Assembly: GCA_034521515.1 (NCBI GenBank)
Contig: JAXHMH010000004.1
Span: forward strand, 64,485-128,484
Length of the DNA stretch: 64,000 bases
Source: Candidatus Saccharimonadota bacterium
GTDB lineage: Bacteria > Patescibacteriota > Saccharimonadia > Saccharimonadales > JAXHMH01
Reading direction: 5' to 3'
The notes beneath the pieces are model-generated. The model worked only from the letters and a program-made list of their open reading frames with translations. It did no database searches and was not told the DNA's origin. The translations under genes and the position numbers were made by a program. Below are positions 1,422 through 56,586 of the stretch, piece by piece (the first letter of the stretch is position 1; each line of letters opens with the position of its first letter).

Positions 1422-3458
1422 ATGACATTAGATAGCTCAGTTAGTGAACTGAGAGGCGTTGGTGAAGAAGTCTCCCGCAAGCTCGAAATATTAGGTGTAC
1501 GAACAGTCGCCGATTTATTGGATTATGTACCTCGCCGGTACGATGATTATTCACAGATTGACGAAATTAATAAATTGAAACCTGGAATGGTCACAGTACA
1601 GGCAAAAATTACGCAAGCAACTGGTCGCTACGTAAGACGCGGTATGCATGTAACTGAAGCCATCGCCTCTGATGACAGCGGCAGCGTCAGACTGGTTTGG
1701 TTTAATCAACCATATCGGACAAATGCGATTAAAGCCGGGAAAGATTATTACATAACAGGTGAGTTCGGTATGCGTCGGACAAAGCTGTCGATATTAAACC
1801 CTTCGGCCGAACTAGTGAGCGATTTTCCTGTTAACACAGCTCGTATCGTACCGGTGTATCGCGAAACCAAAGGTTTGAAATCGGCTCAGATTAGAAAATT
1901 GTTGCGTGAAGCGATTCCACTTGTTCGCAACCTGCCTGAAACACTACCTGAATGGGTAATTGAACAGTACAATTTAATGCCGCGTTCTGCAGCATTTGAA
2001 ATGATGCATTTTCCAGCCGATGCAAAATTGCTCGCTCACGCCAAACGGCGTCTGGCGTATGAAGAGGTGTTTAGTCTCAGTTTGGCGAGTTTGCTCAATA
2101 AATATGAACTTTTGCAAAAAAAAGCTGTGGCGATTTCTTTCCAAGAAAAATTAGCCCGTGATTTTACTGACAGCTTGTCGTTTAATTTAACCGACCAGCA
2201 GCGCAAAGCGGCCTGGCAAATTTATCAAGATCTGGCAAAAACAACTCCAATGAACCGGTTACTGGAAGGCGACGTTGGTTCTGGTAAAACAGTCGTAGCC
2301 ACCATGGCTGCAATTATGGCGGTTGAGCAAGGGTTCCAGGTAGCGTTTATGGCCCCGACTGAACTATTAGCTCGTCAGCACTACCAGACAATCCAAACTC
2401 TTCTAAAGCCGCTAAAGCTTACCAAGAAAGTTGGTCTTTTGGTTGGCGGTCTGAAAAAATCGGCAAAACAGTCCATGCAAAAACGTATTAAAGCTGGTGA
2501 CGTTCAGATTATTGTCGGTACTCACGCTCTAGTCCAAGAAAAGGTTACGATGCAGAATCTAGGTCTGGTTATTGTCGATGAGCAACATCGTTTTGGAGTC
2601 GAACAACGTAAATCATTACAAGCCAAGGCTGAGTTCATGCCGCACGTTCTGGCTATGACAGCCACGCCAATACCGCGTAGCCTTGCATTAACACTTTATG
2701 GTGAGTTGGACATATCGCTTATAAATACTAAACCGCAAGATAGAAAACCAATAAAAACCAGTATTTGTTCGCCAAATTCACGGGCAGCGCTGTATAAAAC
2801 AATTGATAAAGAGCTGGAAGCGGGACGTCAGATGTTTGTCGTATGTCCGTTAATAAGTGAATCTGATAGCTTTCCGGCGCAGTCTGCTGAGCAAGTATAT
2901 GAAAAGTTGAGCAGTAGAGATTTTAAACATCGCCGGGTAGGTCTGTTGCACGGGAAAATGAAAGCAGCTGATAAAGAGTCTGTGATGGATGAGTTCGTGC
3001 GCGGCAAGTTAGACATCTTAGTCTCGACTACGGTGATTGAGGTCGGTGTCGATATACCTAACGCGACGGTAATGTTGATAGAAAATGCTGACAGGTTTGG
3101 CTTAGCGCAGATCCACCAATTACGCGGACGAGTTGGCCGTAGTAGCCACCAAGGGTTTTGTTACCTCATGTTAAGCGATAGCACTCAGCCGAGCCGTCGA
3201 TTGCGAGCACTGGAAAGCTCTACTGATGGATTTGCTTTGGCGGAACTTGATCTTGAGATTCGCGGACCGGGTGCTATTTATGGCACCTTGCAACATGGTG
3301 CGCTTGATCTGCGCGTGGCAAAACTTACCGATGTCAAGCTGATTGCCGCAGCTCGTTCGGGAGCGCAGGCATTTATTGATCACCAAGAAAACCTGCTACA
3401 CTACCATGAGTTGCATGAGCGTATTAAAAAATTACGCGCCGTTACTAATCTTAATTAG
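1422..3458 (+). CDS. recG: ATP-dependent DNA helicase RecG
   Basis: 678 aa; Walker A GDVGSGKT, VIVDEQHRFG box, QLRGRVGR motif VI, N-terminal wedge region. Confidence 0.9.
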   Translation: MTLDSSVSELRGVGEEVSRKLEILGVRTVADLLDYVPRRYDDYSQIDEINKLKPGMVTVQAKITQATGRYVRRGMHVTEAIASDDSGSVRLVWFNQPYRTNAIKAGKDYYITGEFGMRRTKLSILNPSAELVSDFPVNTARIVPVYRETKGLKSAQIRKLLREAIPLVRNLPETLPEWVIEQYNLMPRSAAFEMMHFPADAKLLAHAKRRLAYEEVFSLSLASLLNKYELLQKKAVAISFQEKLARDFTDSLSFNLTDQQRKAAWQIYQDLAKTTPMNRLLEGDVGSGKTVVATMAAIMAVEQGFQVAFMAPTELLARQHYQTIQTLLKPLKLTKKVGLLVGGLKKSAKQSMQKRIKAGDVQIIVGTHALVQEKVTMQNLGLVIVDEQHRFGVEQRKSLQAKAEFMPHVLAMTATPIPRSLALTLYGELDISLINTKPQDRKPIKTSICSPNSRAALYKTIDKELEAGRQMFVVCPLISESDSFPAQSAEQVYEKLSSRDFKHRRVGLLHGKMKAADKESVMDEFVRGKLDILVSTTVIEVGVDIPNATVMLIENADRFGLAQIHQLRGRVGRSSHQGFCYLMLSDSTQPSRRLRALESSTDGFALAELDLEIRGPGAIYGTLQHGALDLRVAKLTDVKLIAAARSGAQAFIDHQENLLHYHELHERIKKLRAVTNLN

Positions 3459-3600
3459 AACGAAAAGCCTAAAAAGCAAGACTCACTACAACCATCATGT
3501 TAGATAAAAATATATATCAGCAAGCGTGTTTTATGCGCAGTTTTCAGTACCGGGCAAAAAACTCGCTGCCAGAAGCGATTAATGCGCAGGGTAGAAAATA

Positions 3601-4419
3601 ATGTACTCCGGAACAACCATAACCAAGTATTCAGGACGTGTCCTTGGTGCTCACCAAAAAATAGATAAAGTGGCTCGCAGGCATCTCAGTCGCTTATTAC
3701 CCGATAATCAGGTGTTTCCAACAGCAAGGCGAATATTACACTTTGAGGGTAAAAATGGTCCCGATGCCATCAAGCGCAAGAGTCCGGCTAAAGATGAGCC
3801 GTGGCATTACTATAGTCCGTTTGACGATGAGGATTCACAGCTAATTGAGCTTATCGAGGAACATTATCATCAATTAGTACGGGAAATTAAGCGAGAAAAC
3901 CAAGAGCGTATTGCTTTTGAGGCAGCCTGGTTGGCGCACGCGCTTGTTGATGGATTAACGCCAGCGCATCATTATCCGTACGAACAAAAATTGGTTGAGC
4001 TGCGGGGCGGAGAGGGAATAGAAACACGAACAAGCGTCAAGGAAAAAATTTTTATGCCTGGCGTCACCCGGCGTGAACGGGTCAAGAACAATTGGAAAAT
4101 GTGGGGACCGAAAGGTTTGTTGACCACGCATGGTTTATTTGAGATAGGCATTGCCACGATTATTGCACCGCTTAGTTTCGGTGAAGCTATTCCCCGCAAA
4201 GAGGATGTTGCCCGCATGCTAGAGATCGGGCCTATAGAATGGTTTCAGCGTTCAGCTCGTGAAATTGCCATTCTCGATATGTACGAACAGTACTACAAAA
4301 AGGGATGGACGCCGAAGTTGGCATGGCAAGTTCGACATAGACTTGGCCCGACTATTATCCAAACCGTTACATTAACTTGGTACGCTGCTTTAGTAGAGGC
4401 AGAAGCTATAAAAACATGA
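3601..4419 (+). CDS. hypothetical protein (His-rich, possible metal-dependent hydrolase fold)
   Basis: 272-aa ORF; its stop overlaps the next start (ATGA 4416-4419); family not recognised. Confidence 0.5.
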   Translation: MYSGTTITKYSGRVLGAHQKIDKVARRHLSRLLPDNQVFPTARRILHFEGKNGPDAIKRKSPAKDEPWHYYSPFDDEDSQLIELIEEHYHQLVREIKRENQERIAFEAAWLAHALVDGLTPAHHYPYEQKLVELRGGEGIETRTSVKEKIFMPGVTRRERVKNNWKMWGPKGLLTTHGLFEIGIATIIAPLSFGEAIPRKEDVARMLEIGPIEWFQRSAREIAILDMYEQYYKKGWTPKLAWQVRHRLGPTIIQTVTLTWYAALVEAEAIKT

Positions 4420-4946
4420 GAATCACGGCTGGTCAGCTAAAAGGAAGATTGTTTGATGATCCGCCAAGTGCACGGGCACATCCAATGTCCGACAGGATTA
4501 AAAACGCGCTGTTTAACAGCTTGGGTGATATAAAGGGGTTGCACTTTTTAGATGGTTTTGGAGGTACTGGGGCTTTGTCATTTGAGGCCATAAGTCGCGG
4601 AGCATCACATGTAACAGTATGCGAGCTTGATAACGGCGTTGCCAAAAGTCTTCAGGGCAATATTGCAAAGCTTGGGCTTGAGTCACGCATTCAATTGATT
4701 GAAAAAAGTGTCTACAGCTACATCAACCAGCAGCCAAAGCCGTTTGATGTTATCATCGCTGACCCACCCTATATGGAGTTTTCTAAACAGAAATTTGAGC
4801 GTTTAACTAAAGTATTAAAACCAGATGGATTGCTTGTCTTATCGTACCCTAGCGCCGCCGATATACCATGGATTGCTGGGCTTGAGCTAGTCAAACAAAC
4901 TCAATATGGCAACGCAGCCCTGGCATTTTATCGACATGTTTCGTAG
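4416..4946 (+). CDS. rsmD: 16S rRNA (guanine966-N2)-methyltransferase, RsmD family
   Basis: MRITAGQLKGR N-terminus, FLDGFGGTGALSFEA SAM site, ADPPY motif; ORF-track start 4377 trimmed to ATG 4416. Confidence 0.8.
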   Translation: MRITAGQLKGRLFDDPPSARAHPMSDRIKNALFNSLGDIKGLHFLDGFGGTGALSFEAISRGASHVTVCELDNGVAKSLQGNIAKLGLESRIQLIEKSVYSYINQQPKPFDVIIADPPYMEFSKQKFERLTKVLKPDGLLVLSYPSAADIPWIAGLELVKQTQYGNAALAFYRHVS

Positions 4947-5030
4947 AATATGTTGAGTTTCTTGCGCGAGTGGTGGCTCAAGTGAAACGTGAGTTCATCG
5001 TAGACACTTGTCCCGTAGTGAGCTCTGGAT

Positions 5031-5115
5031 GCGGCGGTGGCGGAATTGGTAGACGCGCTAGTCTTAGGAACTAGTATCGCAAGATGTGGAGGTTCAAGTC
5101 CTCTCCGCCGCACCA
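5031..5115 (+). tRNA. tRNA-Leu (anticodon TAG), class II, CCA encoded
   Basis: Acceptor GCGGCGG/CCGCCGC+A+CCA, D arm GCG-GAATTGGTAGA-CGC, anticodon stem CTAGT/ACTAG with loop CTTAGGA, long variable arm, T arm GGAGG-TTCAAGT-CCTCT. Confidence 0.92.
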
Positions 5116-5412
5116 AGAATTCAACTACGGGACGCTAGTCCTCGAAACAAGCGCCTTGCGCTGCTACGGGGTAAACTTAGGAACTAGTGCCTCACGTGGC
5201 GTGGAGGTTCACCATATCATCCGATATGGTGCCCTGTCGGATGACAGGGCAAGTCCTCTCCGCCGCACCAAGAATTCAACTACGGGACGCTAGTCCTCGA
5301 AACAAGCGCCTTGCGCTGCTACTGGGTAAACTTAGGAACTAGTGCCTCACGTGGCGTGGAGGTTCACCATATCATCCGATATGGTGCCCTGTCGGATGAC
5401 AGGGCAAGTCCT
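5116..5412 (+). repeat. two tandem 155-bp units, each ending in a tRNA-Leu 3'-half pseudo-copy
   Basis: AGAATTCAAC restarts at 5116 and 5271. The units differ at one base (5168 g vs 5323 t). Each contains CTTAGGAACTAGT...GTGGAGGTTCA + 40-nt insert + AGTCCT. Confidence 0.9.
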
Positions 5413-5433
5413 ATCATCCCCTAACCAAACACC

Positions 5434-5462
5434 AAAAGACCGGTAATCCCGGTTCTTTTTGT
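5434..5462 (+). terminator. putative intrinsic terminator after the tRNA-Leu repeat block
   Basis: AGACCGG-TAATC-CCGGTTCT hairpin (one bulge) followed by TTTTTGTTT. Confidence 0.5.
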
Positions 5463-5499
5463 TTATGTGGAGTATTATTAGGTATAATTATCTTTAACT

Positions 5500-6807
5500 A
5501 TGGCATTATCAACTCAACCATACAAAGGCGCGCGTGATTTTTATCCAGAGGATAAGCGCGTACAAGACTACATGTTTAGCGTTATGCGCGACGCAGTAGA
5601 GCAGTTTGGCTATGAATCATACGATGCACCAATACTCGAGCCTCTAGAACTCTACGCCGCGAAAACCGGGCAAGAGATTGTCGATGAGCAGACTTACACT
5701 TTTACAGATAGGGGTGATCGGCAAGTTGCCATAAGGCCCGAAATGACACCTACGGTAAGCCGAATGGTCGCAGGACGCCGCCAGGAGTTGGCTTATCCAC
5801 TACGTTGGTACTCTATTCCTAATCTGTGGCGCTACGAGCGACCACAACGGGGCAGATTACGCGAGCACTGGCAGCTTAATGTTGATTTGTTTGGATTGCC
5901 TGGCCTAGAAGCTGAACATGAGATTATCTTACTGGCCGACCAGATCATGAAACGATTCGGTGCCAAAAGAAACACCTACGTTATCCGCCTTAACAGCCGT
6001 GAGTTAATGGATGCTGTGCTCGGGGAATATATAGGTTTGGATGAGACACAAAGCCACACCATGCGCAAGCTGATAGACCGCATGCACAAACTTGACGATA
6101 CGGCCGTAGAATCCCAGATGGATGCAATTTTCAGCCCCACTCAAAGAGATGGTGATGCCTACTCTAAACTCAAGGCCTTTTTAGAGATTGAAGATTTACA
6201 AGAGATTCCGGTTGAGCTACAGAAGCACGAGTCAATTGTTAAGCTTCAGAAGCTTATGGAAATGCTCAGAGACTCGTTTGTTTCAAATGTGCGGTTTGAC
6301 CCAACGCTGATGAGAGGGTTTGATTACTATACAGACGTAGTGTTTGAGATTTTTGATACGCATCCAGATAATAATCGATCAATGTTTGGTGGCGGACGAT
6401 ATGATGGTCTGGTTGGTCTGTTTGGTGTTGATCCAGTGCCAACTATCGGTTTTGGAGTTGGAGATGTAACTTTAAAGAATTTCTTAGAAACACACCAGTT
6501 GCTGCCAGAACTGCAATCGCCAGTCGATGTTTACGCGGTACTTATAGGTGACGTATACACACCAGCACAGCGAGCAATCACGGAGCTGCGTGAAATGGGC
6601 ATTAATGTTGCCGTAGATAGTTCTGGCCGAAAGGCTGACAAACAAATAAAAGCCGCCGTAAAACAAGGCATTCGTCACGCGGTTTTTATTGGTGAAAAAG
6701 AGCTCGATAATCAGCAATTTACGCTAAAAGATCTTAAAACCGGACAAGAAGAAGCCCATAGTCTTCAAAAAATTGTCAGCATAGTTAAAGACTATCGCAG
6801 CAGGTAG
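5500..6807 (+). CDS. hisS: histidyl-tRNA synthetase
   Basis: 435 aa; class II motifs RPEMTPTVSRM, FDYYTDVVFE, GGGRYD; anticodon-binding C-terminal domain. Confidence 0.92.
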   Translation: MALSTQPYKGARDFYPEDKRVQDYMFSVMRDAVEQFGYESYDAPILEPLELYAAKTGQEIVDEQTYTFTDRGDRQVAIRPEMTPTVSRMVAGRRQELAYPLRWYSIPNLWRYERPQRGRLREHWQLNVDLFGLPGLEAEHEIILLADQIMKRFGAKRNTYVIRLNSRELMDAVLGEYIGLDETQSHTMRKLIDRMHKLDDTAVESQMDAIFSPTQRDGDAYSKLKAFLEIEDLQEIPVELQKHESIVKLQKLMEMLRDSFVSNVRFDPTLMRGFDYYTDVVFEIFDTHPDNNRSMFGGGRYDGLVGLFGVDPVPTIGFGVGDVTLKNFLETHQLLPELQSPVDVYAVLIGDVYTPAQRAITELREMGINVAVDSSGRKADKQIKAAVKQGIRHAVFIGEKELDNQQFTLKDLKTGQEEAHSLQKIVSIVKDYRSR

Positions 6808-7287: not shown

Positions 7288-8574
7288 GTGTCTATGCATG
7301 TAAAAACTACTCATCAATCAGATACCGAGGTAACCCTCACTATTGTCGCTTCAGAAAAAGATCTAAAAGCTATTAAAGATCACACATTGACACACTTTCA
7401 AGCAAAAGCTAAAGTCGCTGGCTTTAGGGAAGGTAAAGCACCGTTGGAAGTAGTGGAAAAACATGTAGATCAAGAGCAATTACAAAACCAGTTTCTTGAA
7501 GAAGCGGTCAACCAGATGTATCCCCAAGCTGTGCGGAACGAAGACATTCGACCAGTGGTACAACCTGAGATAAAAATTATAAAGTTTGTACCGTTTAGTG
7601 AACTGGAATTTGAAGCCAAAGTACCGGTAGTGGGTGAAATCAAACTTGCCGATTATACTAAGATACGAAAGCCCAAACCATCAGTTACCATTTCAGAAAC
7701 TGATATTAATGAAGTCATTAAATCTCTACAGACTCGTTTAGCTGAAAAGAAGGATGTTGATCGTGCCGCTAAAACAGGTGATCAAGTCTGGATTGATTTT
7801 AAGGGCACCAACCAAAAAGGTGAGCCGATTAACGGCGCAGAAGGCAAGGATTATCCGTTGGTTCTGGGTAGCAAAACATTTATCCCAGGTTTTGAAGATA
7901 ATATTACCGGTATGAAGGCTGGCGAAACCAAGAAGTTTGACGTGACCTTTCCGGCTGATTACGGCGTAAAAGCTTTGGCTAAGCAGAAAGTAACGTTCGA
8001 AGTAACCGTTACGAAAGTTCAAGAAATGACTGAACCAAAGGTAGACGATGCCTTTGCCGCTCAGGCCGGACCGTTTAAAACGCTAAAAGAACTAAAAGAC
8101 GATATTAAGAAGCAGCTCAAATTAGAGCGTGAACAACAAGCTGGAAACCAATATGAGTCAGAGTTGGTTCGTGAGCTGACCACTAAAAGTAAAGTAGTGA
8201 TGCCTCAGGTGCTCATTGATGAGCAGGTTGAGCGGATGATATCGGAATTAAAGCAAAATCTTACATACCGTGGACAAACCTTCCAAGAATATTTGAAGGC
8301 AGAGGGTAAAACAGAAGAAGAGTATCGCAAAGAACTCGCCCCGCAAGCCGAAGAGCGCGTTAAAGCTAGTTTGGTTTTGGCTGAAGTTGCCGAACAAGAG
8401 AAGCTTGACGTGACACCGGAAGAGCTAGAGATTCGTATGCAAACACTTAAGTCGCAATACCAGGACGAAGCTATGCGAGCTGAACTTGAAAAACCGCAAG
8501 CCCGGCGCGATATCGCTATGCGCATGTTGAGCGAAAAGACTGTAGCCTTACTGGCATCACATGCCACCAAATAA
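7288..8574 (+). CDS. tig: trigger factor
   Basis: 428 aa; ribosome-binding signature GFREGKAP, FKBP-like middle domain, helical C-terminus; start GTG 7288 or ATG 7294. Confidence 0.88.
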   Translation: MSMHVKTTHQSDTEVTLTIVASEKDLKAIKDHTLTHFQAKAKVAGFREGKAPLEVVEKHVDQEQLQNQFLEEAVNQMYPQAVRNEDIRPVVQPEIKIIKFVPFSELEFEAKVPVVGEIKLADYTKIRKPKPSVTISETDINEVIKSLQTRLAEKKDVDRAAKTGDQVWIDFKGTNQKGEPINGAEGKDYPLVLGSKTFIPGFEDNITGMKAGETKKFDVTFPADYGVKALAKQKVTFEVTVTKVQEMTEPKVDDAFAAQAGPFKTLKELKDDIKKQLKLEREQQAGNQYESELVRELTTKSKVVMPQVLIDEQVERMISELKQNLTYRGQTFQEYLKAEGKTEEEYRKELAPQAEERVKASLVLAEVAEQEKLDVTPEELEIRMQTLKSQYQDEAMRAELEKPQARRDIAMRMLSEKTVALLASHATK

Positions 8575-8587
8575 CCGCATAGCTTAG

Positions 8588-8732
8588 CACTACGTACTAC
8601 GTACTACGTACTATGTACTAAGTACTAACCACCAGGCATTATCTAGGTACTAGGTACTAGGTACTATGTACTAAGTACTACGCACTAGGTACTGTGTACT
8701 AAGTACTATTATGTACTGTGTACTAAGTACTT
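8588..8732. repeat. heptanucleotide array, about 18 x TACT(A/G)NG in two blocks (8588-8629, 8641-8732)
   Basis: Read directly: cactacg tactacg tactacg tactatg tactaag tactaac ... tactagg tactagg tactatg tactaag tactacg cactagg tactgtg tactaag. Confidence 0.95.
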
Positions 8733-8745
8733 AAAGCTGGCACTC

Positions 8746-8775
8746 TTGACTTGAGACTGCTAGTTCGGCTATGAT
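8746..8775 (+). promoter_or_regulatory. putative sigma70-type promoter of clpP
   Basis: TTGACT (8746-51), 18-nt spacer, TATGAT (8770-75); ATG 8783 lies 8 nt after the -10 box. Confidence 0.4.
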
Positions 8776-8782
8776 GAATGTC

Positions 8783-9382
8783 ATGAGCACACTTATCCCA
8801 ACAGTTATCGAAAACGAAGGTCGCGTTGAACGAGCCTACGACATCTACTCCCGCTTATTAAAAGACCGGATCATATTTTTAGGCGATGACGTTAACGAAC
8901 ACACCGCTAACCTAATTGTTGCTCAGTTTTTGTTTTTAGATAACGCTGACCCCAAAAAAGATATCTATTTGTATATCAACAGTCCAGGCGGCAGCGTCTA
9001 TGATGCTTTGGCAATTTATGACACCATGAACTTCGTTAAGGCTGATGTACAAACAGTTGGAATTGGCGTGCAAGCCAGTGCCGCGGCGTTTTTACTAAGC
9101 TCCGGCACCAAAGGCAAGCGGATGTTACTGCCTCACGCTACTATTATGATGCATCAACCTTCCAGTGGTACGCGTGGTAAAGTTAGCGATCAAGAGATAG
9201 ACCTACGTGAGTCACTGCGGGTTAAAAAGCTACTTGAGGAAATTATGGCTAAAAATACCGGCCAAAACGTCAAGAAAATACACGAAGACTTAGAGCGTGA
9301 TAAGTGGATGACCGCCCAAGAAGCCAAAAAGTACGGCGTTGTAGACACTGTAGTCGCCACGCAGCCAACAGGTAGTAAGTAG
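8783..9382 (+). CDS. clpP: ATP-dependent Clp protease proteolytic subunit
   Basis: [34 protein letters not shown] matches the usual ClpP N-terminus; the ORF is open from 8771 (alternative starts 8771/8774); no SD before any start. Confidence 0.88.
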
Positions 9383-22845: not shown

Positions 22846-23145
22846 GTTACGCACTCAACGTATTAGTATACGTCTCGCTTACGTTACTCAAGAGAAATCA
22901 CAAACTGCACTCAACTCTGTCAGCTGCGTCGTCCTCGGAAGAAATCAAAAACTAGCACCGTGTGTGAATCCCTCAGAAGCGTTCCAGGCGTTACATTGTG
23001 CACGGGGATTTTGTTACGCACTCAACGTATTAGTATACGTCTCGCTTACGTTACTCAAGAGAAATCACAAACTGCACTCAACTCTGTCAGCTGCGTCGTC
23101 CTCGGAAGAAATCAAAAACTAGAACCGTGTGTGAGTTCCTCAGAC
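22846..23145. repeat. direct duplication, 2 x about 133 bp with a 167-bp period
   Basis: GTTACGCACTCAACGTATTAGTATACG...AAATCAAAAACTAG(C/A)ACCGTGTGTGA at 22846 and 23013; near-identical. Confidence 0.9.
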
Positions 23146-23410: not shown

Positions 23411-23758
23411 ATGGCTGAAGCCAAAAAATCATCAACCCCCGCTAAAAACGAGGTAAAGCAGCGCATACGTATACGACTAAAGGCGTATGATCATAAAGTA
23501 ATAGATCAATCCACAAAACAGATTGTCGATACAGCGATTCGTACCGGTGCTACAATTGCCGGACCTATCCCATTGCCAACTAAGCGATCAGTATTTACGG
23601 TCGTTAAAAGCCCTCACGTTTATAAAAAACACCGCGAACAATTTGAGATGCGTGTTCATAAACGACTTATCGACGTATTAGAGCCAACACCGAAGACGAT
23701 TGACTCACTCATGAATCTCTCATTGCCTGCCGGCTGTGACGCCGAAATCAAGATGTAA
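23411..23758 (+). CDS. rpsJ: 30S ribosomal protein S10
   Basis: [17 protein letters not shown]..., ends AEIKM; SD GAAAGGAG, ATG 23411 (ORF-track TTG 23405). Confidence 0.95.
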
Positions 23759-23766
23759 GGCTGCGA

Positions 23767-23886
23767 CCTGCCCGTCTTGTCAGACAGACAGGCGGGCCTG
23801 CCCGTCTTGTCAGACAGACAGGCGGGCCTGCCCGTCTTGTCAGACAGACAGGCGGGCCTGCCCGTCTTGTCAGACAGACAGGCGGG
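23767..23886 (+). repeat. four perfect tandem 30-nt palindromic units
   Basis: CCTGCCCGTCTTGTCAGACAGACAGGCGGG x4; 11-nt arms pair with one G-T wobble and one mismatch. Confidence 0.95.
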
Positions 23887-24013
23887 CGCCGAAATAAAAA
23901 TGTAGCAAGTTGGGTGCTTGCCCCGCAGTAATGTGTAGTATTTACTGACGGAATGAGGCTGAAATTAAGATGTAGCACTTGCTTCTGTAGCTTTGTGATA
24001 CCATATTAATATT

Positions 24014-24292
24014 GTGGCAAACAAACCAAAAAAACACAGTAAAACATCCAATAACCAAGATAGCGTATTTGTACTAAAAATACTTTTGTATTTGCTGCTA
24101 GGAATGCAGTGGGTGTGGTTCGTTGATGCGTTAGGTAATGTAGTATTCTTACTGCCCTTTGGGCCAGCACTAGGGTTGCTATTTGCTAGTCACGAACACT
24201 TTAGTCTTGATAGAAAACTTGATTACACAGTTTTGTTATTGTCTGGAGCGGTTAGTTTTTTGCTTGGTGTAGGGTTTTACTTTACCGTTTAA
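24014..24292 (+). CDS. small hypothetical membrane protein
   Basis: 92 aa, GTG start, three hydrophobic segments. Confidence 0.4.
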   Translation: MANKPKKHSKTSNNQDSVFVLKILLYLLLGMQWVWFVDALGNVVFLLPFGPALGLLFASHEHFSLDRKLDYTVLLLSGAVSFLLGVGFYFTV

Positions 24293-25481
24293 GCGTTTTG
24301 TTATTGAGACAAATAGCACAATACTCTTCGGTGTCATTACGTGCTCGCCATATTTTTATAGCCTTCTTGGGCTGCATGATATCTAAATAACCAAATAAGT
24401 CTGCTAAGTCCCGTATTACAGAAGCAGTAATTCCTCTTAAAGAATAACCTCTGTAGTGAAGTAGCGCCCATTTATTACCAACCGGAACGACCACGATTGG
24501 GCTACGGGGCTTGTATTTTTTAAGTTTTTTGCCTTTTAACTGGCGCTGTAATTGGCTTGCTACGTAACCCGCGTCGTGTACTGCGGTTTGCGCATAACCA
24601 CTGTTAGCAGTGTCTGCGTTATCCCCAATAACAAAGACATCGGGGTGAACTTTCAGGTAATTGTCTACTAGTATTTTACCGCGTTTAGAAATACCAAACC
24701 ACTGGTTGTTTTGTCTATAAAATGAAGGTAATTTCGCTCCGGCGCACCATACGGCGGTGTTGGTATCAAATAAATGTTTATCGGTTACTAGTTGTTTAGA
24801 GGTCTCTTTTTTTACATTGGTTTTTGGCCAAAATCGTATACCTAACCTTTTCAACCTAAGTCGAGCATGCTTTGACGTGCTAACAGGTAAGTTTGGTAGC
24901 GGTTTGTCTGAACGATCAACAAGGTCAATTTGTACCTTGGGATGCTTGATTTTATGTTTTTTAGCTATCTTTTGTACATACGATGCTAAACCTGCCGATA
25001 CTTCTACACCTGTTGCTCCAGCTCCAATAACAACGTAACTATGCTCGGAATTGTGTGCTGTTGTCATGAAATCGTGTAGGTGTTTCCGTAAATCTAAAAT
25101 TTCATCAGGGGAAGTCACGCTAAAGGCGTTTTGTTTGATACCTGGTGTGTCAAAATAGTCTGGTACGGAGCCTAGTGCAAGAACGACCTTATCGTAGTGT
25201 AGCGACTTACCGGATCCAGTAGTTAAGATATGTTTGTTCATATCAATGTGTTTGGCACGACCGTATATAACTTCTACATTTTTTAATGGTTTAGTTATAT
25301 CCTTAATCGGTATGGAGGAAGCGCGCATTGTAAAGCCTGTGGCAGTACGATACAGGGCGGGGCAATAGCGAAAGTCATGTCGCTCCGTTAAAAGCGTAAT
25401 TTGAACGTCACTGCGAGAACGGAGTTGCTTAGCAAGAGCTAAACCTCCAAACCCGCCGCCGACAATAATTAATCTAAGCAT
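24282..25481 (-). CDS. ndh: type II NADH dehydrogenase (NDH-2) / FAD-dependent pyridine nucleotide-disulfide oxidoreductase
   Basis: 399 aa; RLIIVGGGFGG FAD fold and second VVIGAGATGVE dinucleotide fold. Confidence 0.85.
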   Translation of the reverse strand: MLRLIIVGGGFGGLALAKQLRSRSDVQITLLTERHDFRYCPALYRTATGFTMRASSIPIKDITKPLKNVEVIYGRAKHIDMNKHILTTGSGKSLHYDKVVLALGSVPDYFDTPGIKQNAFSVTSPDEILDLRKHLHDFMTTAHNSEHSYVVIGAGATGVEVSAGLASYVQKIAKKHKIKHPKVQIDLVDRSDKPLPNLPVSTSKHARLRLKRLGIRFWPKTNVKKETSKQLVTDKHLFDTNTAVWCAGAKLPSFYRQNNQWFGISKRGKILVDNYLKVHPDVFVIGDNADTANSGYAQTAVHDAGYVASQLQRQLKGKKLKKYKPRSPIVVVPVGNKWALLHYRGYSLRGITASVIRDLADLFGYLDIMQPKKAIKIWRARNDTEEYCAICLNNKTLKR

Positions 25482-25560
25482 TAGTAATACTATAGCTTTA
25501 TCTGTAGCCTGTATACAAGTAGTTGCACAGAATCACGGTAACGGTTACTCTATTAGTGAA

Positions 25561-27213
25561 ATGACAAAATATATAAAAGAAATAGAAAAACAAATTACTG
25601 GTGAGGTTAGCACTGAAGCAGAAATTAAGAATGCTTACAGTCACGATGCCAGTCTGTTTGAGGTTGTACCCCAAGCTGTGGTGTTTCCAAAGGATAGCTC
25701 AGACGTTCAGAGTGTCGTTAACATCATACGTAAAGCCAAACAATCAGGAGAAAATGCCGCAATTACAGCTCGAAGTGCAGGTACTGATATGGGCGGTGCG
25801 GCAATAGGCGAATCGATAGTACTAGACATGACGAAGTACTTTAATGCTATTCACGAAGTCACGTCGACCTCAGCGCACGCGCAGCCAGGAGTTTATTATC
25901 GAGATTTTGAGGTATCAACACTTGAACATGGTGCTTTATTGCCACCGTATCCTGCCTCAAGAGGGCTGTGTACGATTGGCGGCATGGTTGCTAATAACTC
26001 CGGAGGAGAAAAATCACTTCAGTACGGCAAGACTGAAAACTTCGTACGTGAGCTAAAGGTAGTGCTGTCAGATGGTAATGAGTACACCATTAAACCTCTA
26101 AAAAAGCCTGAACTCGATAAAATAATGAAAAAGAATACATTCGAGGGTCGATTTTATAAGCAAGTATTTGATCTAGTAGAAAATAATTATGACGAAATAA
26201 AAGCTGCTAAGCCTAATGTAAGTAAAGACTCCACCGGATACCATATATGGAATGTTTGGGATAGGGATACGGGTATATTTGATTTGACTCAGTTGATAGT
26301 CGGTTCACAGGGTACTTTGGGTATAGTTACCGATATAACATTTCGACTCGTGCCCGCACCGAGACATTCCGGAACTCTTGTTGTATTTCTAAGAGACATT
26401 AGCGATCTTGGAAAATTAATAAATGATGTATTGCGACATAAACCTGCTACTTTCGAAGGTTTCGACAACTATACATTGATGCTTAGTATTAAACTGTTCT
26501 TTTACTTTAGAAAAACACTTGGTTGGTTTGGCATGATGAAACTAGGTCTGCAACTTATACCGAATGCTCTTATGATGTTCCGCGGCATACCGAAAATGGT
26601 CTTACTGATTGAGTTTAATGGCCAGACCAAAGACGAGGTTAAGCAAAAAGTTCACAATATGCGTACTGCACTAAAGCCTTACAACCATGAAGCATTGTTC
26701 GAAGAAGATGAGACCGAGGCCAAAGCCAAGAAATTTTGGATTATGCGCAGAGAGAGCTTTAACTTGCTAAGGAAAAAGGTTAAAGACAAGCATACTGCAC
26801 CATTCATTGACGATCTTGTAGTGCCACCTCATCACCTACCAGCATTTTTACCTAAGGTGAGAGAAATTATGAAGCGGTATAAGCTACTTGCAACCATTGC
26901 TGGTCATATGGGTGATGGTAATTTTCATATTATTCCGCTTATGGAAATTGAGAAACAAAGTGAACGAGACAAACTAGAGCCAGCAATGAGAGAAGTCAAT
27001 AAATTAGTTTTAGAATTTGGCGGTTCGTTATCAGGTGAACATAACGATGGTATGATACGCGGCCCGTGGTTAGAGCAAATGTATGGAGCCAAAACTCTGG
27101 GATACTTTAAACAGGTAAAGTCAATATTTGACCCAACCAATATATTCAATCCACATAAAAAGACTGATGCTGAGTGGGAATATAGTATCAACCATGTTCG
27201 CAAGAGCTTCTAG
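25561..27213 (+). CDS. FAD-binding oxidoreductase (GlcD / D-lactate dehydrogenase-like)
   Basis: 550 aa; PCMH-type FAD-binding N-terminal domain, C-terminal GSLSGEHNDGMIRG block typical of FAD-linked oxidases. Confidence 0.75.
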   Translation: MTKYIKEIEKQITGEVSTEAEIKNAYSHDASLFEVVPQAVVFPKDSSDVQSVVNIIRKAKQSGENAAITARSAGTDMGGAAIGESIVLDMTKYFNAIHEVTSTSAHAQPGVYYRDFEVSTLEHGALLPPYPASRGLCTIGGMVANNSGGEKSLQYGKTENFVRELKVVLSDGNEYTIKPLKKPELDKIMKKNTFEGRFYKQVFDLVENNYDEIKAAKPNVSKDSTGYHIWNVWDRDTGIFDLTQLIVGSQGTLGIVTDITFRLVPAPRHSGTLVVFLRDISDLGKLINDVLRHKPATFEGFDNYTLMLSIKLFFYFRKTLGWFGMMKLGLQLIPNALMMFRGIPKMVLLIEFNGQTKDEVKQKVHNMRTALKPYNHEALFEEDETEAKAKKFWIMRRESFNLLRKKVKDKHTAPFIDDLVVPPHHLPAFLPKVREIMKRYKLLATIAGHMGDGNFHIIPLMEIEKQSERDKLEPAMREVNKLVLEFGGSLSGEHNDGMIRGPWLEQMYGAKTLGYFKQVKSIFDPTNIFNPHKKTDAEWEYSINHVRKSF

Positions 27214-27235
27214 ATATCAATACTTATACATAAAT

Positions 27236-27268
27236 AAAAATCCTCGGTGTATATAACCGAGGATTTTT
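27236..27268. terminator. bidirectional intrinsic terminator between convergent genes
   Basis: AAAAATCCTCGG-TGTATATAA-CCGAGGATTTTT. Confidence 0.75.
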
Positions 27269-27292
27269 CAGTATTAGCTGGAAGTTTAGTTG

Positions 27293-27832
27293 CTAGCTGA
27301 GTATAGGGAACTTTTTCACTAAAGCAGTTTTCTTCCATTGTTTACCAAAGCCAAGTCGTTGATTGTTGTCACCGAAGTAGATGGCTGCTAGTAGGACGCT
27401 GTAGACTACATGGTCATCTAATACTGGGTGATGTTCTGGTGGTAGCACTGCAGTCCACATCATCATGAGCATAACTGCACCACTGATAGTTCCTAGTTTT
27501 GTTGCGATTCCAAATGTTAGCGCAACACCTATACCAAGAAGACCCGTCATAAATAACAAATCAATAAAACCGTTTCCAGCCAAACCTGCATAAAAGTCTG
27601 CGAATGGTCCTTGAGTGCCAAACTTTAAAAATCCAGTGGTTGACGAGCCGCCCTGTAGTGCTGCACTGTCACACATTACGTTAATGCCATTGGTCGCCGC
27701 ATCTCGGCAAGTGGAAAAACCAAGCCCAATTAATTTGTCAAGAAACGCCCATAAAAACACCAGGCCAACGCTAATTCTAGCGATTCCAAGCGATACGAAC
27801 AGTTTATTTAGTGATTCTTTCTGTCTTGCCAT
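27293..27832 (-). CDS. DoxX-family membrane protein
   Basis: 179 aa, four hydrophobic helices, DoxX-like LIGLGFS / GLAGNGFIDLLFMTGLLGIG pattern. Confidence 0.65.
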   Translation of the reverse strand: MARQKESLNKLFVSLGIARISVGLVFLWAFLDKLIGLGFSTCRDAATNGINVMCDSAALQGGSSTTGFLKFGTQGPFADFYAGLAGNGFIDLLFMTGLLGIGVALTFGIATKLGTISGAVMLMMMWTAVLPPEHHPVLDDHVVYSVLLAAIYFGDNNQRLGFGKQWKKTALVKKFPILS

Positions 27833-28159: not shown

Positions 28160-28771
28160 ATGAAAGCTTTAATCACCAGAAAAGTTGGCATGACTAGCAC
28201 TATCAATGATGATGGTACGGTTCAAGCCGTAACTTTGCTTTCCGCTAGCCCAAATACCATTACACAGGTGAAGTCCGACGAGACAGATGGTTACACATCT
28301 GTCCAGATTGGTATGGGTACAAAAAAACACGGCAAAGCGCAGGCAGGACATTTTAAAAAATCTAACGTTATGCCGGAAGTATCACGAGAAGTCCGTGTAG
28401 AAGAAATATCAGAAGACCTCACCGTTGGTAACCATCTAACAGCTGAGGTTTTTTCAGTTGGCGACACCGTCCATATCACCGGAACCAGTAAAGGTAAGGG
28501 TTTTGCCGGCACTATTAAACGTCACAATTTTCATCAACAACGCAAAACACACGGCGGAAACGGCAATGTACGTAAACCGGGTTCAATCGGTTCAATGTAT
28601 CCTCAGCGTATTTTTAAAGGCAAAAAAATGGCTGGACAGATGGGTGGCGAACAAGTGACAGTTCGTAATCTACGCGTTGCACTGATTGATGCGGAACATA
28701 ATGTCATAGGCATTGCCGGAGCAGTTCCAGGACCCCGCAAAGGTATAGTGATAATCAGGGAGGCCAAATAA
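28160..28771 (+). CDS. rplC: 50S ribosomal protein L3
   Basis: 203 aa; KGKGFAGTIKRHNF. Confidence 0.95.
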   Translation: MKALITRKVGMTSTINDDGTVQAVTLLSASPNTITQVKSDETDGYTSVQIGMGTKKHGKAQAGHFKKSNVMPEVSREVRVEEISEDLTVGNHLTAEVFSVGDTVHITGTSKGKGFAGTIKRHNFHQQRKTHGGNGNVRKPGSIGSMYPQRIFKGKKMAGQMGGEQVTVRNLRVALIDAEHNVIGIAGAVPGPRKGIVIIREAK

Positions 28772-48661: not shown

Positions 48662-48737
48662 TGGCAGGGGTGACAGGACTTGAACCTGCGACACCTGGTT
48701 TTGGAGACCAGTGCTCTACCAGCTGAGCTACACCCCT
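48662..48737 (-). tRNA. tRNA-Trp (anticodon CCA), CCA encoded
   Basis: Minus strand reads AGGGGTGTAGCTCAGCTGGTAGAGCACTGGTCTCCAAAACCAGGTGTCGCAGGTTCAAGTCCTGTCACCCCTGCCA. Confidence 0.92.
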
Positions 48738-48979
48738 ATATTCAATCTTTTTAGTAATGCTGTTCGTGTACCACGGCTTGATTTTACCGTATGTTCTCTC
48801 CTGCGTGCTAATTCTTGGGAAAGAAATGCTTCGTAATAGATTAACTTAAAGGGTCTCCTGCTTTTGGTTGATTCAACTTTACCGTCATTGTGATGTCTAA
48901 TACGTCGTTGCAGGTCATTAGTTGATCCGTAATAATGTTCATTATCAACTTCTGAAGTTAATACGTAAAAGTACCACAT
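48728..48979 (-). CDS. small GIY-YIG nuclease family protein
   Basis: 83 aa; WYFYVL (GIY), HYYGST (YIG), RRIRHHN, YYEAF motifs; the stop codon lies inside the tRNA-Trp acceptor stem (10-nt overlap). Confidence 0.85.
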   Translation of the reverse strand: MWYFYVLTSEVDNEHYYGSTNDLQRRIRHHNDGKVESTKSRRPFKLIYYEAFLSQELARRREHTVKSSRGTRTALLKRLNIGV

Positions 48980-48986
48980 ACAGCTA

Positions 48987-49039
48987 CTCTACCAGCTGAC
49001 CCGCCTGTCTGTCGACTAGACGGGCAGGGCTACACCCCT
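48987..49039 (-). repeat. duplicate of tRNA-Trp nt 1-24 interrupted by a 29-nt palindromic element
   Basis: 48987-48999 plus 49029-49039 equal 48714-48737. The insert at 49000-49028, CCCGCCTGTCTGTCGACTAGACGGGCAGG, is the reverse complement of the rpsJ-locus 30-mer with 1 substitution and 1 indel. Confidence 0.9.
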
Positions 49040-55395: not shown

Positions 55396-55623
55396 CGCTG
55401 GGCATTCATGATCAGAATCTTGAGATTGTCACGCGGCTGTTCGGTGCCGAATGCTGCATGCTCATGTGTTGCCAGACGGAAGCATTTACCATTGTAGGCA
55501 TCCGTACAGAATTTAATAATTAATAATTTGTGGGACCCGGCCTTCCACAGGAAAGCCGGGGTTAATACCACGACCCCAACAGTAAACACGAAAGTTACCG
55601 TGGGGCAGAAAGGATAAGACATT

Positions 55624-56586
55624 ATGGCAAAAAAAGCAGAATTACTTGAGGAAGCAAAAGCCTTAAAGCTTGATGTTAATCAAAAAAACACCATTGCTGA
55701 AATTGAGGCAGCCATACAGAGCCATGAGCAAGGAGCTGTGAGTAATGAGGAAGCTCAAGGCTCTGACGACAAGGTCGTCGTTGCCAAGGCCGGCAAGCGA
55801 AGTGCCAAGGCTATAAAAGAGGCAGAAGAACTACAGGCCAAAGAAGAGCGCAAAGCACAAACTGCAACAGACGAAGAAACTACAGCCAAAAAGACCCACA
55901 AACCAGCTCGTTCACGACTAGAACGCCGAGCTAAAGGGTACAAAAACGTACAAAAACTTATAGAGGCAGGCAAACAGTATGGCGTGGCTGATGCTGTTGA
56001 GTTAGCGAGCAAAACCAGCCCGGTCAAATTCGATGCTACGGTTGAACTTCACGTTAATCTAAATGTAGATCCGAGACAGGCTGATCAAAATATCCGTGAT
56101 ACAGTTGTTTTGCCAGCAGGGACAGGCAAAGAAACAAGAGTGGCGGTGTTTGCCGATACCGCAGGCGTCGCAACAGCAAAAAAAGCGGGGGCAGACATTG
56201 CGGGAGAAGATGAATTATTACAACAACTGGATAAAGAACAGTTCGATTTTGATGTGCTCATTGCAACTCCAACAACTATGCCGAAACTAGGTAAATATGC
56301 TCGATTGCTTGGGCCAAAAGGACTTATGCCGAACCCAAAAAGCGGCACCGTAACAACCGACATAGCCAAAGCTGTTGAAGAAGCGAAAGCTGGTAGAGTT
56401 GAATATCGTGTTGATAGTACCGGAATTATCCATATGGCCGTTGGTAAAGTGAGCTTTGGTAAACATAAGCTTTTTGATAACGCACGTGCAGCCATCAAGA
56501 GCATTAGGGGTAACAAGCCAGCTAGCGTAAAGTCGTCATTCATTACATCAGCTCACGTTACAACCAAGTACTGCCCGATTCCATAA
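55624..56586 (+). CDS. rplA: 50S ribosomal protein L1 with a roughly 95-aa N-terminal extension; 3' end apparently frameshifted
   Basis: uL1 core from about residue 100 (KFDATVELHVNLNVDPRQADQNIRDTVVLPAGTGK). The ORF ends ...HVTTKYCPIP, whereas the -1 frame continues ...SIKVDVNDVNAL to 56618. Confidence 0.85.
   Translation: MAKKAELLEEAKALKLDVNQKNTIAEIEAAIQSHEQGAVSNEEAQGSDDKVVVAKAGKRSAKAIKEAEELQAKEERKAQTATDEETTAKKTHKPARSRLERRAKGYKNVQKLIEAGKQYGVADAVELASKTSPVKFDATVELHVNLNVDPRQADQNIRDTVVLPAGTGKETRVAVFADTAGVATAKKAGADIAGEDELLQQLDKEQFDFDVLIATPTTMPKLGKYARLLGPKGLMPNPKSGTVTTDIAKAVEEAKAGRVEYRVDSTGIIHMAVGKVSFGKHKLFDNARAAIKSIRGNKPASVKSSFITSAHVTTKYCPIP

Follow-up and report, generated by a model that had tools for sequence, protein, structure and literature searches.

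A dispersed palindrome and a small GIY-YIG nuclease gene that look like a selfish DNA pair at replaced ends of essential genes in Saccharibacteria

We analysed a stretch of 64,000 nucleotides (nt) from a Candidatus Saccharimonadota bacterium (contig JAXHMH010000004.1 of GenBank assembly GCA_034521515.1; referred to here as the window) that contains a 30-nt, GC-rich quasi-palindrome, which we named HP30, at two essential genes. One is the gene for tRNA-Trp, where HP30 stands beside a short open reading frame (ORF) for a stand-alone GIY-YIG nuclease domain, and the other is rpsJ, which encodes ribosomal protein S10. At both genes the palindrome interrupts a redundant copy of the gene's own end. 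A preliminary description of the window had proposed a mechanism linking the palindrome, the duplicated termini and the GIY-YIG gene, and this proposal proved partly right: taken together, HP30 and the gene for the nuclease resemble a pair of selfish DNAs that has not been described before and that occupies places at which essential genes have had an end replaced.

Split gene ends in the window

On the minus strand, the tRNA-Trp locus (Table 1) leads from an orphan copy of the first 24 nt of the tRNA, through an 83-amino-acid (aa) ORF, into the functional tRNA gene. The duplicated part is the 5′ end of the tRNA, and the copy lies upstream. Orphan nt 1–11, cut off from the rest by HP30, still adjoin the native upstream flank; nt 12–24 form the 5′ leader of the nuclease ORF, end 7 nt before its ATG and hold the Shine–Dalgarno-like or −10-like motif GGTAGAGT. 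At its other end the ORF runs into the functional gene, so that nt 1–10 of the tRNA supply its final codons, ATA GGG GTG TAG. A second assembly, made independently from the same sample (L037; loci of relatives, known from genome fragments or contigs, carry L numbers here), contains the whole locus in exactly the same form. Duplication of an integrase attachment site was rejected as its origin: the 5′ and not the 3′ part of the tRNA is duplicated, the GIY-YIG gene is the sole inserted gene and no recombinase gene lies nearby. Two promoter-like sites were observed on the same strand. One (49115–49087), near orphan nt 1–11, is probably the native tRNA-Trp promoter; the other (49015–48986), just 5′ of the nuclease ORF, combines the centre of HP30 (TCGACA) with the D-arm remnant (TGgTAGAGT) at a distance of 18 nt, and matches at 9 of 12 positions with an extended −10 element.

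Table 1. Coordinates of the tRNA-Trp, rpsJ and tRNA-Leu features in the window
Feature	Position	Strand	Basis
Functional tRNA-Trp (CCA)	48662..48737	-	ARAGORN; Rfam RF00005, 70.4 bits
Stand-alone GIY-YIG ORF, 83 aa (NCBI MDZ7744964.1)	48728..48979	-	PF01541 match
Orphan tRNA-Trp nt 12–24, TCAGCTGGTAGAG	48987..48999	-	sequence
HP30, 29-nt variant, exactly between orphan tRNA nt 11 and 12, CCTGCCCGTCTAGTCGACAGACAGGCGGG	49000..49028	-	pattern search
Orphan tRNA-Trp nt 1–11, AGGGGTGTAGC	49029..49039	-	sequence
rpsJ (ribosomal protein S10), functional	23414..23758	+	ORF list
Live rpsJ terminus, copy 1, last 27 nt, GGCTGTGACGCCGAAATCAAGATGTAA	23732–23758	+	sequence
Orphan rpsJ terminus, copy 2, first 8 nt, GGCTGCGA	23759..23766	+	sequence
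HP30 array, four identical 30-nt units, CCTGCCCGTCTTGTCAGACAGACAGGCGGG	23767..23886	+	pattern search, TRF, ORF list
Orphan rpsJ terminus, copy 2, remainder, CGCCGAAATAAAAATGTAG	23887..23905	+	sequence
Third, oldest rpsJ terminus remnant, GAGGCTGAAATTAAGATGTAG	23955..23975	+	comparison with L048
Analogous locus with different palindromes, beginning inside the tRNA-Leu 3′ end	5095..5412	+	sequence, tandem repeats

At rpsJ, the functional gene is followed directly by a second version of its last 27 nt, which is interrupted after the eighth base by an array of HP30 units. Joined across the array, the two parts of this copy encode GCDAEIKM*, and the array itself is in frame with them: the reading continues from GCD through four times 10 residues into AEIKM*. 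The live and the orphan terminus differ at four positions, each a third codon position at which the change is synonymous; four changes placed at random would do this with P = 0.007. The pattern points to a terminus imported from a diverged allele, not to one duplicated locally. The S10 homologues of Saccharibacteria all share one 13-residue ending; an exact look-up of the S10 protein of the window returned no match. Farther downstream we found a third, more decayed remnant of the rpsJ terminus. There, cacTTGCTTCTGtAGCT of the window matches atcgTTGCTTCTGcAGCT, which in the relative L048 stands directly after the rpsJ stop codon, and the flank 3′ of the remnant is TTGCTTCTGtAGCT. Because this flank corresponds to the one that follows rpsJ in L048, the third remnant represents the ancestral end of the gene. 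The duplications of 27 nt at rpsJ and 24 nt at tRNA-Trp had both been recognized in the preliminary description, which missed this older copy.

The surroundings of rpsJ have been rearranged as well. In the relatives L048 and L049, rplC follows rpsJ directly or nearly so, at 0.2–0.7 kb; in the window about 4.4 kb of unrelated genes separate rpsJ from rplC (28160–28771), namely a small membrane-like ORF, a Pyr_redox_2 gene (NDH-2-like, minus strand), a FAD-linked oxidase gene and a 179-aa ORF (24014–27832). The spot is therefore a recombination scar in any case, and the HP30 array is placed at the boundary of this rearrangement. Another independent assembly of the same sample (L058) has a contig that stops exactly at the right edge of the array, which confirms the flank; the copy number of four comes from one assembly. 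Two further repeats were seen in this context. The unusually long spacer between tuf and rpsJ holds a 132-nt direct repeat (22846–22977 and 23013–23144, 98% identical, 167 nt apart) that matches no Rfam family, and a metagenomic S10 homologue of 145 aa (P0030) contains an internal tandem duplication of about 31 residues.

The pattern CCTGCCCGTCT-N4-10-AGACAGGCGGG, searched on both strands, matched five times in the window and not once in 100 dinucleotide-preserving shuffles of it. Four of the matches are the identical 30-mers that lie head to tail behind rpsJ (period 30, 4.0 copies and 100% match by TRF), and the fifth is the 29-nt variant at tRNA-Trp, which differs from the 30-nt version by one substitution and one central 1-nt deletion. 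Both the presence of one element at the two loci and these two differences had been noted before and were confirmed here. When up to three mismatches were allowed, the window yielded no additional copy, and it holds no isolated half-sites. The consensus is CCTGCCCG-N10-CAGACAGGCGGG, about 30 bp, with a GC content of 67% against 43.6% for the window. Its arms (CCTG-CCCG ... CAGG-CGGG) form one wobble pair and one mismatch in each orientation, and as single-stranded DNA HP30 folds at about −7 kcal/mol (z about −2.5).

Several known kinds of repeat were considered and rejected. The four units of the array abut with no spacers between them, which excludes a CRISPR array. Only tRNAs and the L10 leader reached the gathering threshold in an Rfam scan, which speaks against a known RNA family, riboswitch or leader; at a permissive level the array gives sub-threshold microRNA-hairpin noise. 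An intrinsic terminator was rejected because a terminator scan calls none at HP30; at one locus outside the window (L015) a T-run follows the HP30 copy. A strand-specific RNA hairpin, which the G·U pairs might indicate, was dropped, as the balance of wobbles and mismatches is equal and both orientations occur at the same site. We inferred that a DNA uptake sequence is not a suitable description either, HP30 being far too rare and too long. At 30 bp and with no target-site duplication it does not qualify as a miniature inverted-repeat transposable element, which usually measures 50–500 bp, and a phage or viral origin was rejected because the 120 or more viral-contig matches to a loose pattern are chance matches, none with the HP30 core. 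Finally, HP30 is not part of a general litter of GC-rich hairpins, as a scan of the window for stems of at least 9 bp found such inserts only at the tRNA-Leu stubs described below, together with one isolated hairpin (CCCGGCCTTCCACAGGAAAGCCGGG, 72% GC, 55536–55560) that lies just 5′ of an ORF starting at 55624 and is unrelated to HP30 in sequence.

The tRNA-Leu locus follows the same logic of a palindrome within a redundant terminus, with another palindrome family. The tRNA-Leu gene (5031–5115), whose last 21 nt (5095–5115) are common to the repeat locus, is followed by two tandem units of 155 nt that are 99% identical (region 5031–5430). Each unit contains a pseudo 3′ half of tRNA-Leu that looks foreign. 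The variable arm of this half is different, though well formed, and its T-loop is split between GGTTC and AAGTCC by twin perfect hairpins, ACCATATCATCCGATATGGT and GCCCTGTCGGATGACAGGGC (5211–5250 and 5366–5405), which fold at −15.6 kcal/mol (z = −6.9). Each unit closes with an orphan tRNA-Leu 3′ end, the last of which is degenerate (AAGTCCTATCATCCCCTAACC). The pseudo 3′ halves could be integrase attachment scars; no integrase was present among the genes near them. A search for the hairpin pair in viral contigs and in all fetched loci did not find it. A separate repeat in the window, a degenerate heptanucleotide tandem array of (ACTAGGT)n with about 20 copies (8589–8731), lies between the ORFs at 7288–8574 and 8771–9382.

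The tRNA-Trp cassette and its nuclease in other lineages

The layout seen at tRNA-Trp recurs in eight lineages (the window with L037, L050, L035, L039–47, L051–53, L054, L055 and L183). In every one of them the order is orphan tRNA nt 1–11, HP30, a D-arm remnant that extends to nt 19–30, the GIY-YIG ORF and the functional tRNA-Trp gene. The cassette measures about 310 bp, with HP30 as its constant left-end part and the native promoter region before it. HP30 splits the stub between nt 11 and 12 in all lineages except L055, where it does so between nt 10 and 11. The D-arms of tRNA-Trp differ strongly between clades (GTGTAGCTCAGCTGG versus GCATAGTACAACGG), yet the order of the cassette is the same. 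This recurrence, together with the other palindromes at tRNA-Leu, bears out the earlier suggestion that the architecture is not random. It also makes the GIY-YIG gene a credible partner of the palindrome, as had been proposed: the two co-occur in 8 of 8 lineages and decay together in L054, in which the start of the nuclease ORF is lost or degenerate and HP30 carries three arm mutations. L183 has one possible frameshift in the ORF and an intact HP30, and is uninformative for this comparison.

We next compared HP30 with the DNA around it. Between L039 and L051, HP30 is identical at 29 of 30 positions (97%), only once one copy is reverse-complemented, and the upstream flank, the leader and the ORF are 55%, 60% and 78% identical, respectively. 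Between the window and L051, identity is 90% for HP30, 68% for the ORF and 72% for the tRNA. HP30 thus stays alike as the neighbouring flanks and the ORF diverge, and it is a fixed, sequence-constrained component of the tRNA-Trp cassette. Its orientation is not fixed: CCTGCC..GGCGGG lies on the tRNA sense strand in four lineages and the reverse complement does so in the other four. The preliminary description had the element in the same orientation relative to its host at both loci, which is correct for the window, where each copy follows the sense strand, and fails as a rule.

The cassette is polymorphic between near-identical strains. Across 590 nt of flanking sequence the empty locus L018 and the filled locus L035 share 97.1% identity, and their tRNAs agree at 75 of 76 nt; the two loci differ in length by 309 nt, which is the entire cassette. 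What comes and goes is a nuclease ORF with its own tRNA 5′ end. Because the cassette supplies its own copy of this terminus, the tRNA gene remains whole, with its native terminus reduced to a stub. The process appears to have happened twice in L055, where two successive tRNA-Trp stubs (2439–2939) are each split by HP30 (2445–2474 and 2776–2805, 1 nt different and in the same orientation), one on either side of the GIY-YIG ORF. The second stub includes 12 nt from the end of the ORF as well as tRNA nt 1–37; between it and the live tRNA lie 16 nt of filler and then a second copy of the 12 nt. This arrangement suggests a second invasion of the restored tRNA, followed by a second replacement of its terminus.

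Two other features were noted at individual loci. Immediately 3′ of the cassette-bearing tRNA-Trp, L039 has genes for a 569-aa serine recombinase and a Replic_Relax protein (3286–6160), which belong to a separate integrated element that uses the 3′ side of the tRNA. In L018 (5670–5740), L035 (475–545) and L019 (10470–10545), the loop of a second palindrome, ATTCCCG..CGGGAAT, encloses HP30; this composite of about 65 nt, TTACTGGATTCCCGA-HP30-TCTKGCCGGGAATGAC, occurs at two loci from one metagenome, about 100 nt 5′ of tRNA-Trp and in the spacer between groES and groEL. L018 has the composite even though no cassette is present at its tRNA-Trp gene.

The nuclease is small. On sequence the 83-aa protein is a member of the GIY-YIG superfamily, matching PF01541 over positions 1–73 of 78 (E = 6.3e-17), which is its sole Pfam domain above threshold; T5orf172, a GIY-YIG-related family, stays below the cut-off and covers the same residues, and the score for TIGR01453, 20.8 bits, does not reach the cut-off of 56. 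Across 21 homologues the catalytic residues Y5, Y16/G18, R26, H30 and E50 vary little or not at all. The predicted structure (pLDDT 93.3) has the expected order of strands and helices. The nearest PDB sequences found by phmmer are the UPF0213 proteins 1zg2 (BH0048, 4e-8) and 1ywl (EF2693, 2e-4), and Foldseek likewise ranks 1zg2 first, followed by Slx1 nuclease domains, some of them complexed with branched DNA (TMq 0.65–0.71, 27–32% identity); I-TevI matches the model less well (TMq 0.48), and UvrC is also clearly further away. Sequence and model together place the protein in the prokaryotic stand-alone Slx1-like or UPF0213 clade, as a single minimal domain; such prokaryotic Slx1-like proteins have been described as the minimal stand-alone form of the GIY-YIG fold (PMC1564403). 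It does not have the architecture of classical GIY-YIG homing endonucleases such as I-TevI and Seg.

All close homologues of the nuclease are 81–91 aa long, and most end in ..IGV*, ..GA* or ..GE*, codons that come from the 5′ end of tRNA-Trp with nt 8–10 of the tRNA as the stop. Viral contigs hold only four GIY-YIG relatives, and tests of the neighbouring genes for transposase-like Pfam matches gave none. Distant homologues were also seen beside other tRNA genes with local palindromes. In L056 (2277–2760), the homologue P0021 lies about 150 nt 3′ of tRNA-Arg, next to a tyrosine integrase gene, and the 3′ end of the tRNA runs into a perfect 26-nt palindrome, GCCACGTCGTTCGCGAACGACGTGGC, and then a repeat of ACGCCAC. 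In L179, another homologue lies 100 nt 5′ of tRNA-Lys, and a hairpin separates this tRNA from a GGGGCC stub. Within the candidate phyla radiation (CPR), GIY-YIG genes have been noted only within rRNA insertions (PMC11270868), and our full-text literature searches returned no description of a system of this kind in Saccharibacteria and no function for UPF0213/YhbQ.

HP30 copies in other genes and spacers

Exact-pattern scans of one genome per species for 185,579 species, and of metagenome contigs, identified 11 low-GC loci with a full HP30, three of them in a single Saccharibacteria metagenome-assembled genome (MAG; CAYXCB01). The same scans gave many matches in high-GC sequence, which are unrelated chance matches. 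Several of the low-GC copies lie inside full-length genes. One is on the sense strand of a gene for an S41 peptidase (L007; ..ILDGN[TCPSCPTDRR]VGYLKISRF), one is antisense in a gene for an RluD-like pseudouridine synthase (L006), and others are antisense in uvrA of two diverged species, between the cysteines of a CPxC motif (HCP[TRLSGERDGQ]VCGKP; L021/L024 and the diverged L026). Every copy in a coding sequence (CDS) measures exactly 30 nt, or 10 codons, and alignments to homologues in the PDB show a gap of 10 residues for the S41 peptidase and 9 for RluD at the insert site. Other copies are intergenic (L009, L015, L036, L018 and L019, the last of these between groES and groEL).

For UvrA the empty site could be reconstructed to the base. 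Of 120 listed homologous fragments, 114 had the region readable; none of the 114 carries the insert, and most read HCP[V/I]CG, among them one that is 88% identical to the carrier. The insertion falls between CCAA and TTTGT and splits an ATT codon. The reading frame that is used in UvrA and RluD contains a stop in five of six non-coding HP30 copies (four intergenic ones and the rpsJ array unit) and in none of the three CDS copies. Because this frame is open within genes and mostly stopped outside them, the HP30 codons within genes are most likely translated. A bolder variant is that these copies could be removed or bypassed at the level of the RNA or the ribosome, as are byp elements. Four UvrA fragments (P0151, P0152, P0173 and P0177) have another insert of seven residues, HCPALMPDGTRCGKPV, at the same CPxC loop, which indicates that the loop tolerates insertions of more than one origin.

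HP30 is therefore a conserved, dispersed insertion of the presence/absence type that occurs in either orientation in several Saccharibacteria. It is retained at places where it is largely harmless: in protein loops, to which it adds exactly 10 codons, in the spacers between genes and in orphaned termini. The earlier statement that it never occupies a functional copy describes the window correctly, and does not extend to the in-frame copies in intact UvrA, S41 peptidase and RluD-like genes. Flank duplication was absent at all CDS and intergenic copies, which likewise divides an earlier claim, namely that insertion is coupled to or selected with duplication of the terminus: insertion itself makes no duplication, and the duplication is instead selected with the element or brought in by the cassette.

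A proposed coupling of nuclease and palindrome, and related systems

We consider that the cassette is a terminus-replacing mobile nuclease ORF coupled to the dispersed palindrome HP30, a reading to which we would give an even chance of being correct. The cassette would spread when a break in an empty allele is repaired from a filled allele, as with the mobile ORFs (mORFs) of fungal mitochondria. HP30 would be the probable DNA site of the small nuclease, which might act on it as a symmetric dimer or might cut an extruded hairpin or cruciform with a structure specificity like that of Slx1. As a nuclease site, HP30 would be expected to have conserved arms and a free centre, to be indifferent to orientation and able to flip, to decay jointly with the ORF and to leave solo copies elsewhere. 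At rpsJ, HP30 would have landed in frame 19 nt before the stop codon and expanded to four copies, after which the end of the gene may have been replaced by the 27-nt terminus of a diverged functional allele, orphaning the HP30-bearing end; a previous round of replacement would have left the third remnant.

A number of observations weigh against this reading. The case of rpsJ stands alone, and no nuclease gene accompanies it. Classical GIY-YIG homing enzymes owe their long target sites to a DNA-binding domain, which the 83-aa protein lacks, and a single-stranded hairpin of about −7 kcal/mol is weak for spontaneous cruciform extrusion. If the D-arm of the tRNA were the target of the nuclease, genomes with the cassette would still expose their live tRNA gene to it. 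The 17 HP30 insertion sites have neither a target-site duplication nor a clear target consensus. The 11 copies from the scans were found with a pattern of fixed arms, so that conservation of the arms is fairly measured only on the cassette copies. Finally, L018 and L019, from the same metagenome, both carry HP30, yet the tRNA-Trp site on L018 is empty; if the two belong to one genome, solo HP30 copies are possible without an adjacent cassette.

The explanation that survives best beside this one is that HP30 is a non-autonomous miniature selfish element moved by some other enzyme, and that within a stub it either destroys a residual homing site, conferring immunity, or shortens a direct repeat and so protects against recombinational loss. 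HP30 does occur at many loci with no GIY-YIG gene nearby. The stub is split at a fixed point between nt 11 and 12, as expected for a critical part of a recognition or cleavage site, and the palindrome divides a repeat of 24–34 nt into 11 and 13–19 nt; the tRNA-Leu stubs in the same window are split by a different palindrome pair. This account leaves unexplained, however, why one sequence family in both orientations is used in all eight lineages, why the arms are kept while neutral flanks randomise and why arm and ORF decay together in L054, and no candidate transposase was seen near any HP30 copy. We regard it as unlikely.

HP30 might instead act in cis, as an operator or promoter module through which the nuclease gene regulates itself, or as an RNA stem-loop that stabilises or insulates the transcript, with the other copies produced by occasional recombination. 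I-TevI is known to repress its own synthesis via an operator that resembles its homing site, palindromic operators work independently of orientation, HP30 always lies 13–27 nt 5′ of the start codon of the nuclease, and in the window it contributes to the promoter-like pair noted above. The regulatory explanation does not account for precise 30-nt in-frame inserts in UvrA, S41 peptidase and RluD-like genes that are absent in close homologues, nor for the four-copy array behind rpsJ and the complete flips, and HP30 has no T-run for termination and no match to an Rfam family. As a full alternative we think it improbable; a regulatory role could exist alongside that of a nuclease site.

Nor does coincidence seem probable, and we would rank it lower still. 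Here the terminus duplications would be scars of integrative elements or of illegitimate recombination, and palindromes inserted at random would survive only there because selection removes all others. The genomes of Saccharibacteria are compact, with few neutral landing places; the pseudo 3′ half at tRNA-Leu begins in the anticodon loop, like a classical attachment remnant, and has its own well-formed variable arm; and recombinase genes lie near the tRNA in L039 and L056. Against this, random insertion is unlikely to hit the same position in eight lineages, and to do so twice in L055, the palindrome is under sequence constraint, and the duplication at tRNA-Trp concerns the 5′ end, with no integrase nearby in the window. 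An assembly artefact in a metagenome bin is very improbable: a short-read assembly does break at the rpsJ array, for which a single assembly gives the copy number, but the array of 120 nt is shorter than a typical read, the agreement with L037 excludes mis-assembly at tRNA-Trp, and contigs from numerous unrelated samples and assemblers show this architecture too.

A stronger version of the nuclease-coupled reading would make HP30 and the 83-aa protein a new transposition or homing system, in which a structure-specific nuclease without a DNA-binding domain recognises the extruded 30-bp hairpin, cuts its base and moves or flips the unit. We consider this version doubtful. If it holds, HP30 would be the smallest known mobile DNA unit, landing in frame in essential genes and driving repeated replacement of gene termini, and the widespread bacterial UPF0213/Slx1-like family would receive its first function. 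Saccharibacteria can now be cultured and transformed, and homing, flipping and the specificity of the nuclease are thus directly testable. The inserts also matter in their own right. Essential conserved genes (tRNA-Trp, rpsJ and uvrA) in minimal genomes bear 10-codon selfish inserts and recycled termini, which is relevant to annotation, to the choice of phylogenetic markers and to how reduced genomes tolerate parasites. Mobile DNA of Saccharibacteria and the CPR is poorly charted beyond rRNA introns.

Each part of the pair has relatives among known systems. Slx1 acts with Slx4 on flaps and junctions in DNA repair, and Slx1 and the UPF0213 (YhbQ-like) proteins give the best sequence and fold matches to the 83-aa protein and share its single-domain build; a selfish, tRNA-embedded and palindrome-linked lifestyle was not described in the literature searched. 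For stand-alone Slx1-like GIY-YIG proteins, which are common in bacteria, our reading offers a concrete and testable function. Phage T4 SegB and its kin are encoded by free-standing GIY-YIG genes beside tRNA genes and achieve preferential inheritance through cleavage of the rival allele. The adjoining tRNA is common to both systems, but Seg proteins exceed 200 aa and have DNA-binding domains, and neither a terminus duplication nor a palindrome partner has been described for them.

Among palindromes, repetitive extragenic palindromic sequences and the mosaic elements built from them (REP/BIME), with their REP-associated tyrosine transposase (RAYT), combine a dispersed, imperfect palindrome of 20–40 nt with one enzyme gene that is flanked by a copy; the palindrome does not move autonomously, and its enzyme presumably acts in trans. 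HP30 resembles them in being a dispersed palindrome with an enzyme gene beside a copy. Its partner, however, is a GIY-YIG protein and not a Y1 HUH transposase, it also occurs inside coding regions, and its copy number appears low, at two loci in 64 kb and three exact copies in the MAG CAYXCB01; REP sequences are extragenic and number tens to hundreds per genome. Rickettsia palindromic elements (RPEs) are palindromic selfish DNA that inserts in frame into functional genes and is tolerated as an extra peptide. In-frame insertion into protein-coding genes is likewise tolerated with HP30, whereas RPEs are 100–150 bp long, are confined to Rickettsia and have no known associated nuclease.

The GC clusters of yeast mitochondria are palindromic, occur in frame in var1 and in tandem arrays, have loops that evolve faster than their stems, and are associated with recombination and with the loss or gain of adjacent DNA (PMC8811140). 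GC clusters, and the byp elements of Magnusiomyces, share with HP30 that they are short GC-rich palindromes in an AT-richer genome, form polymorphic in-frame insertions in coding sequences and are found singly and in arrays. There is no sequence relationship between GC clusters and HP30, which differs from them in having no AG/TAG target duplication, in being tied to a specific nuclease gene, in its bacterial host and in that the evidence favours translation over ribosomal bypass.

The layout at tRNA-Trp has its parallel in the mORFs of fungal mitochondria, which carry a substitute C-terminus, with the native one left behind on their downstream side; the two copies differ only at synonymous positions (PMC3630166). 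In Allomyces macrogynus atp6 and in atp6, atp9, cox2 and nad3 of Glomus, as here, a free-standing endonuclease ORF (LAGLIDADG or GIY-YIG) occupies one end of an essential gene, carries a copy of the terminus with it, turns the native terminus into an unexpressed orphan and is present or absent among close relatives. The same relations hold in the window and in the seven other lineages, where the ORF ends in tRNA nt 1–10 and the orphan (nt 1–24 in the window) stands upstream by the native flank, and presence and absence between close relatives are seen in L035 and L018. The cassette differs from mORFs in its host, a member of the Saccharibacteria, in its target, the 5′ end of a tRNA within which the ORF has its stop codon, in its 83-aa catalytic domain without a DNA-binding module, and in an orphan that is always split by a palindrome present elsewhere in the genome. 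HP30 is accordingly a member of none of the mORF, GC-cluster, REP/RAYT and RPE classes, and if our reading is true, mORF-type genes and GC-cluster-like palindromes, both so far known mainly from fungal mitochondria, extend to bacteria.

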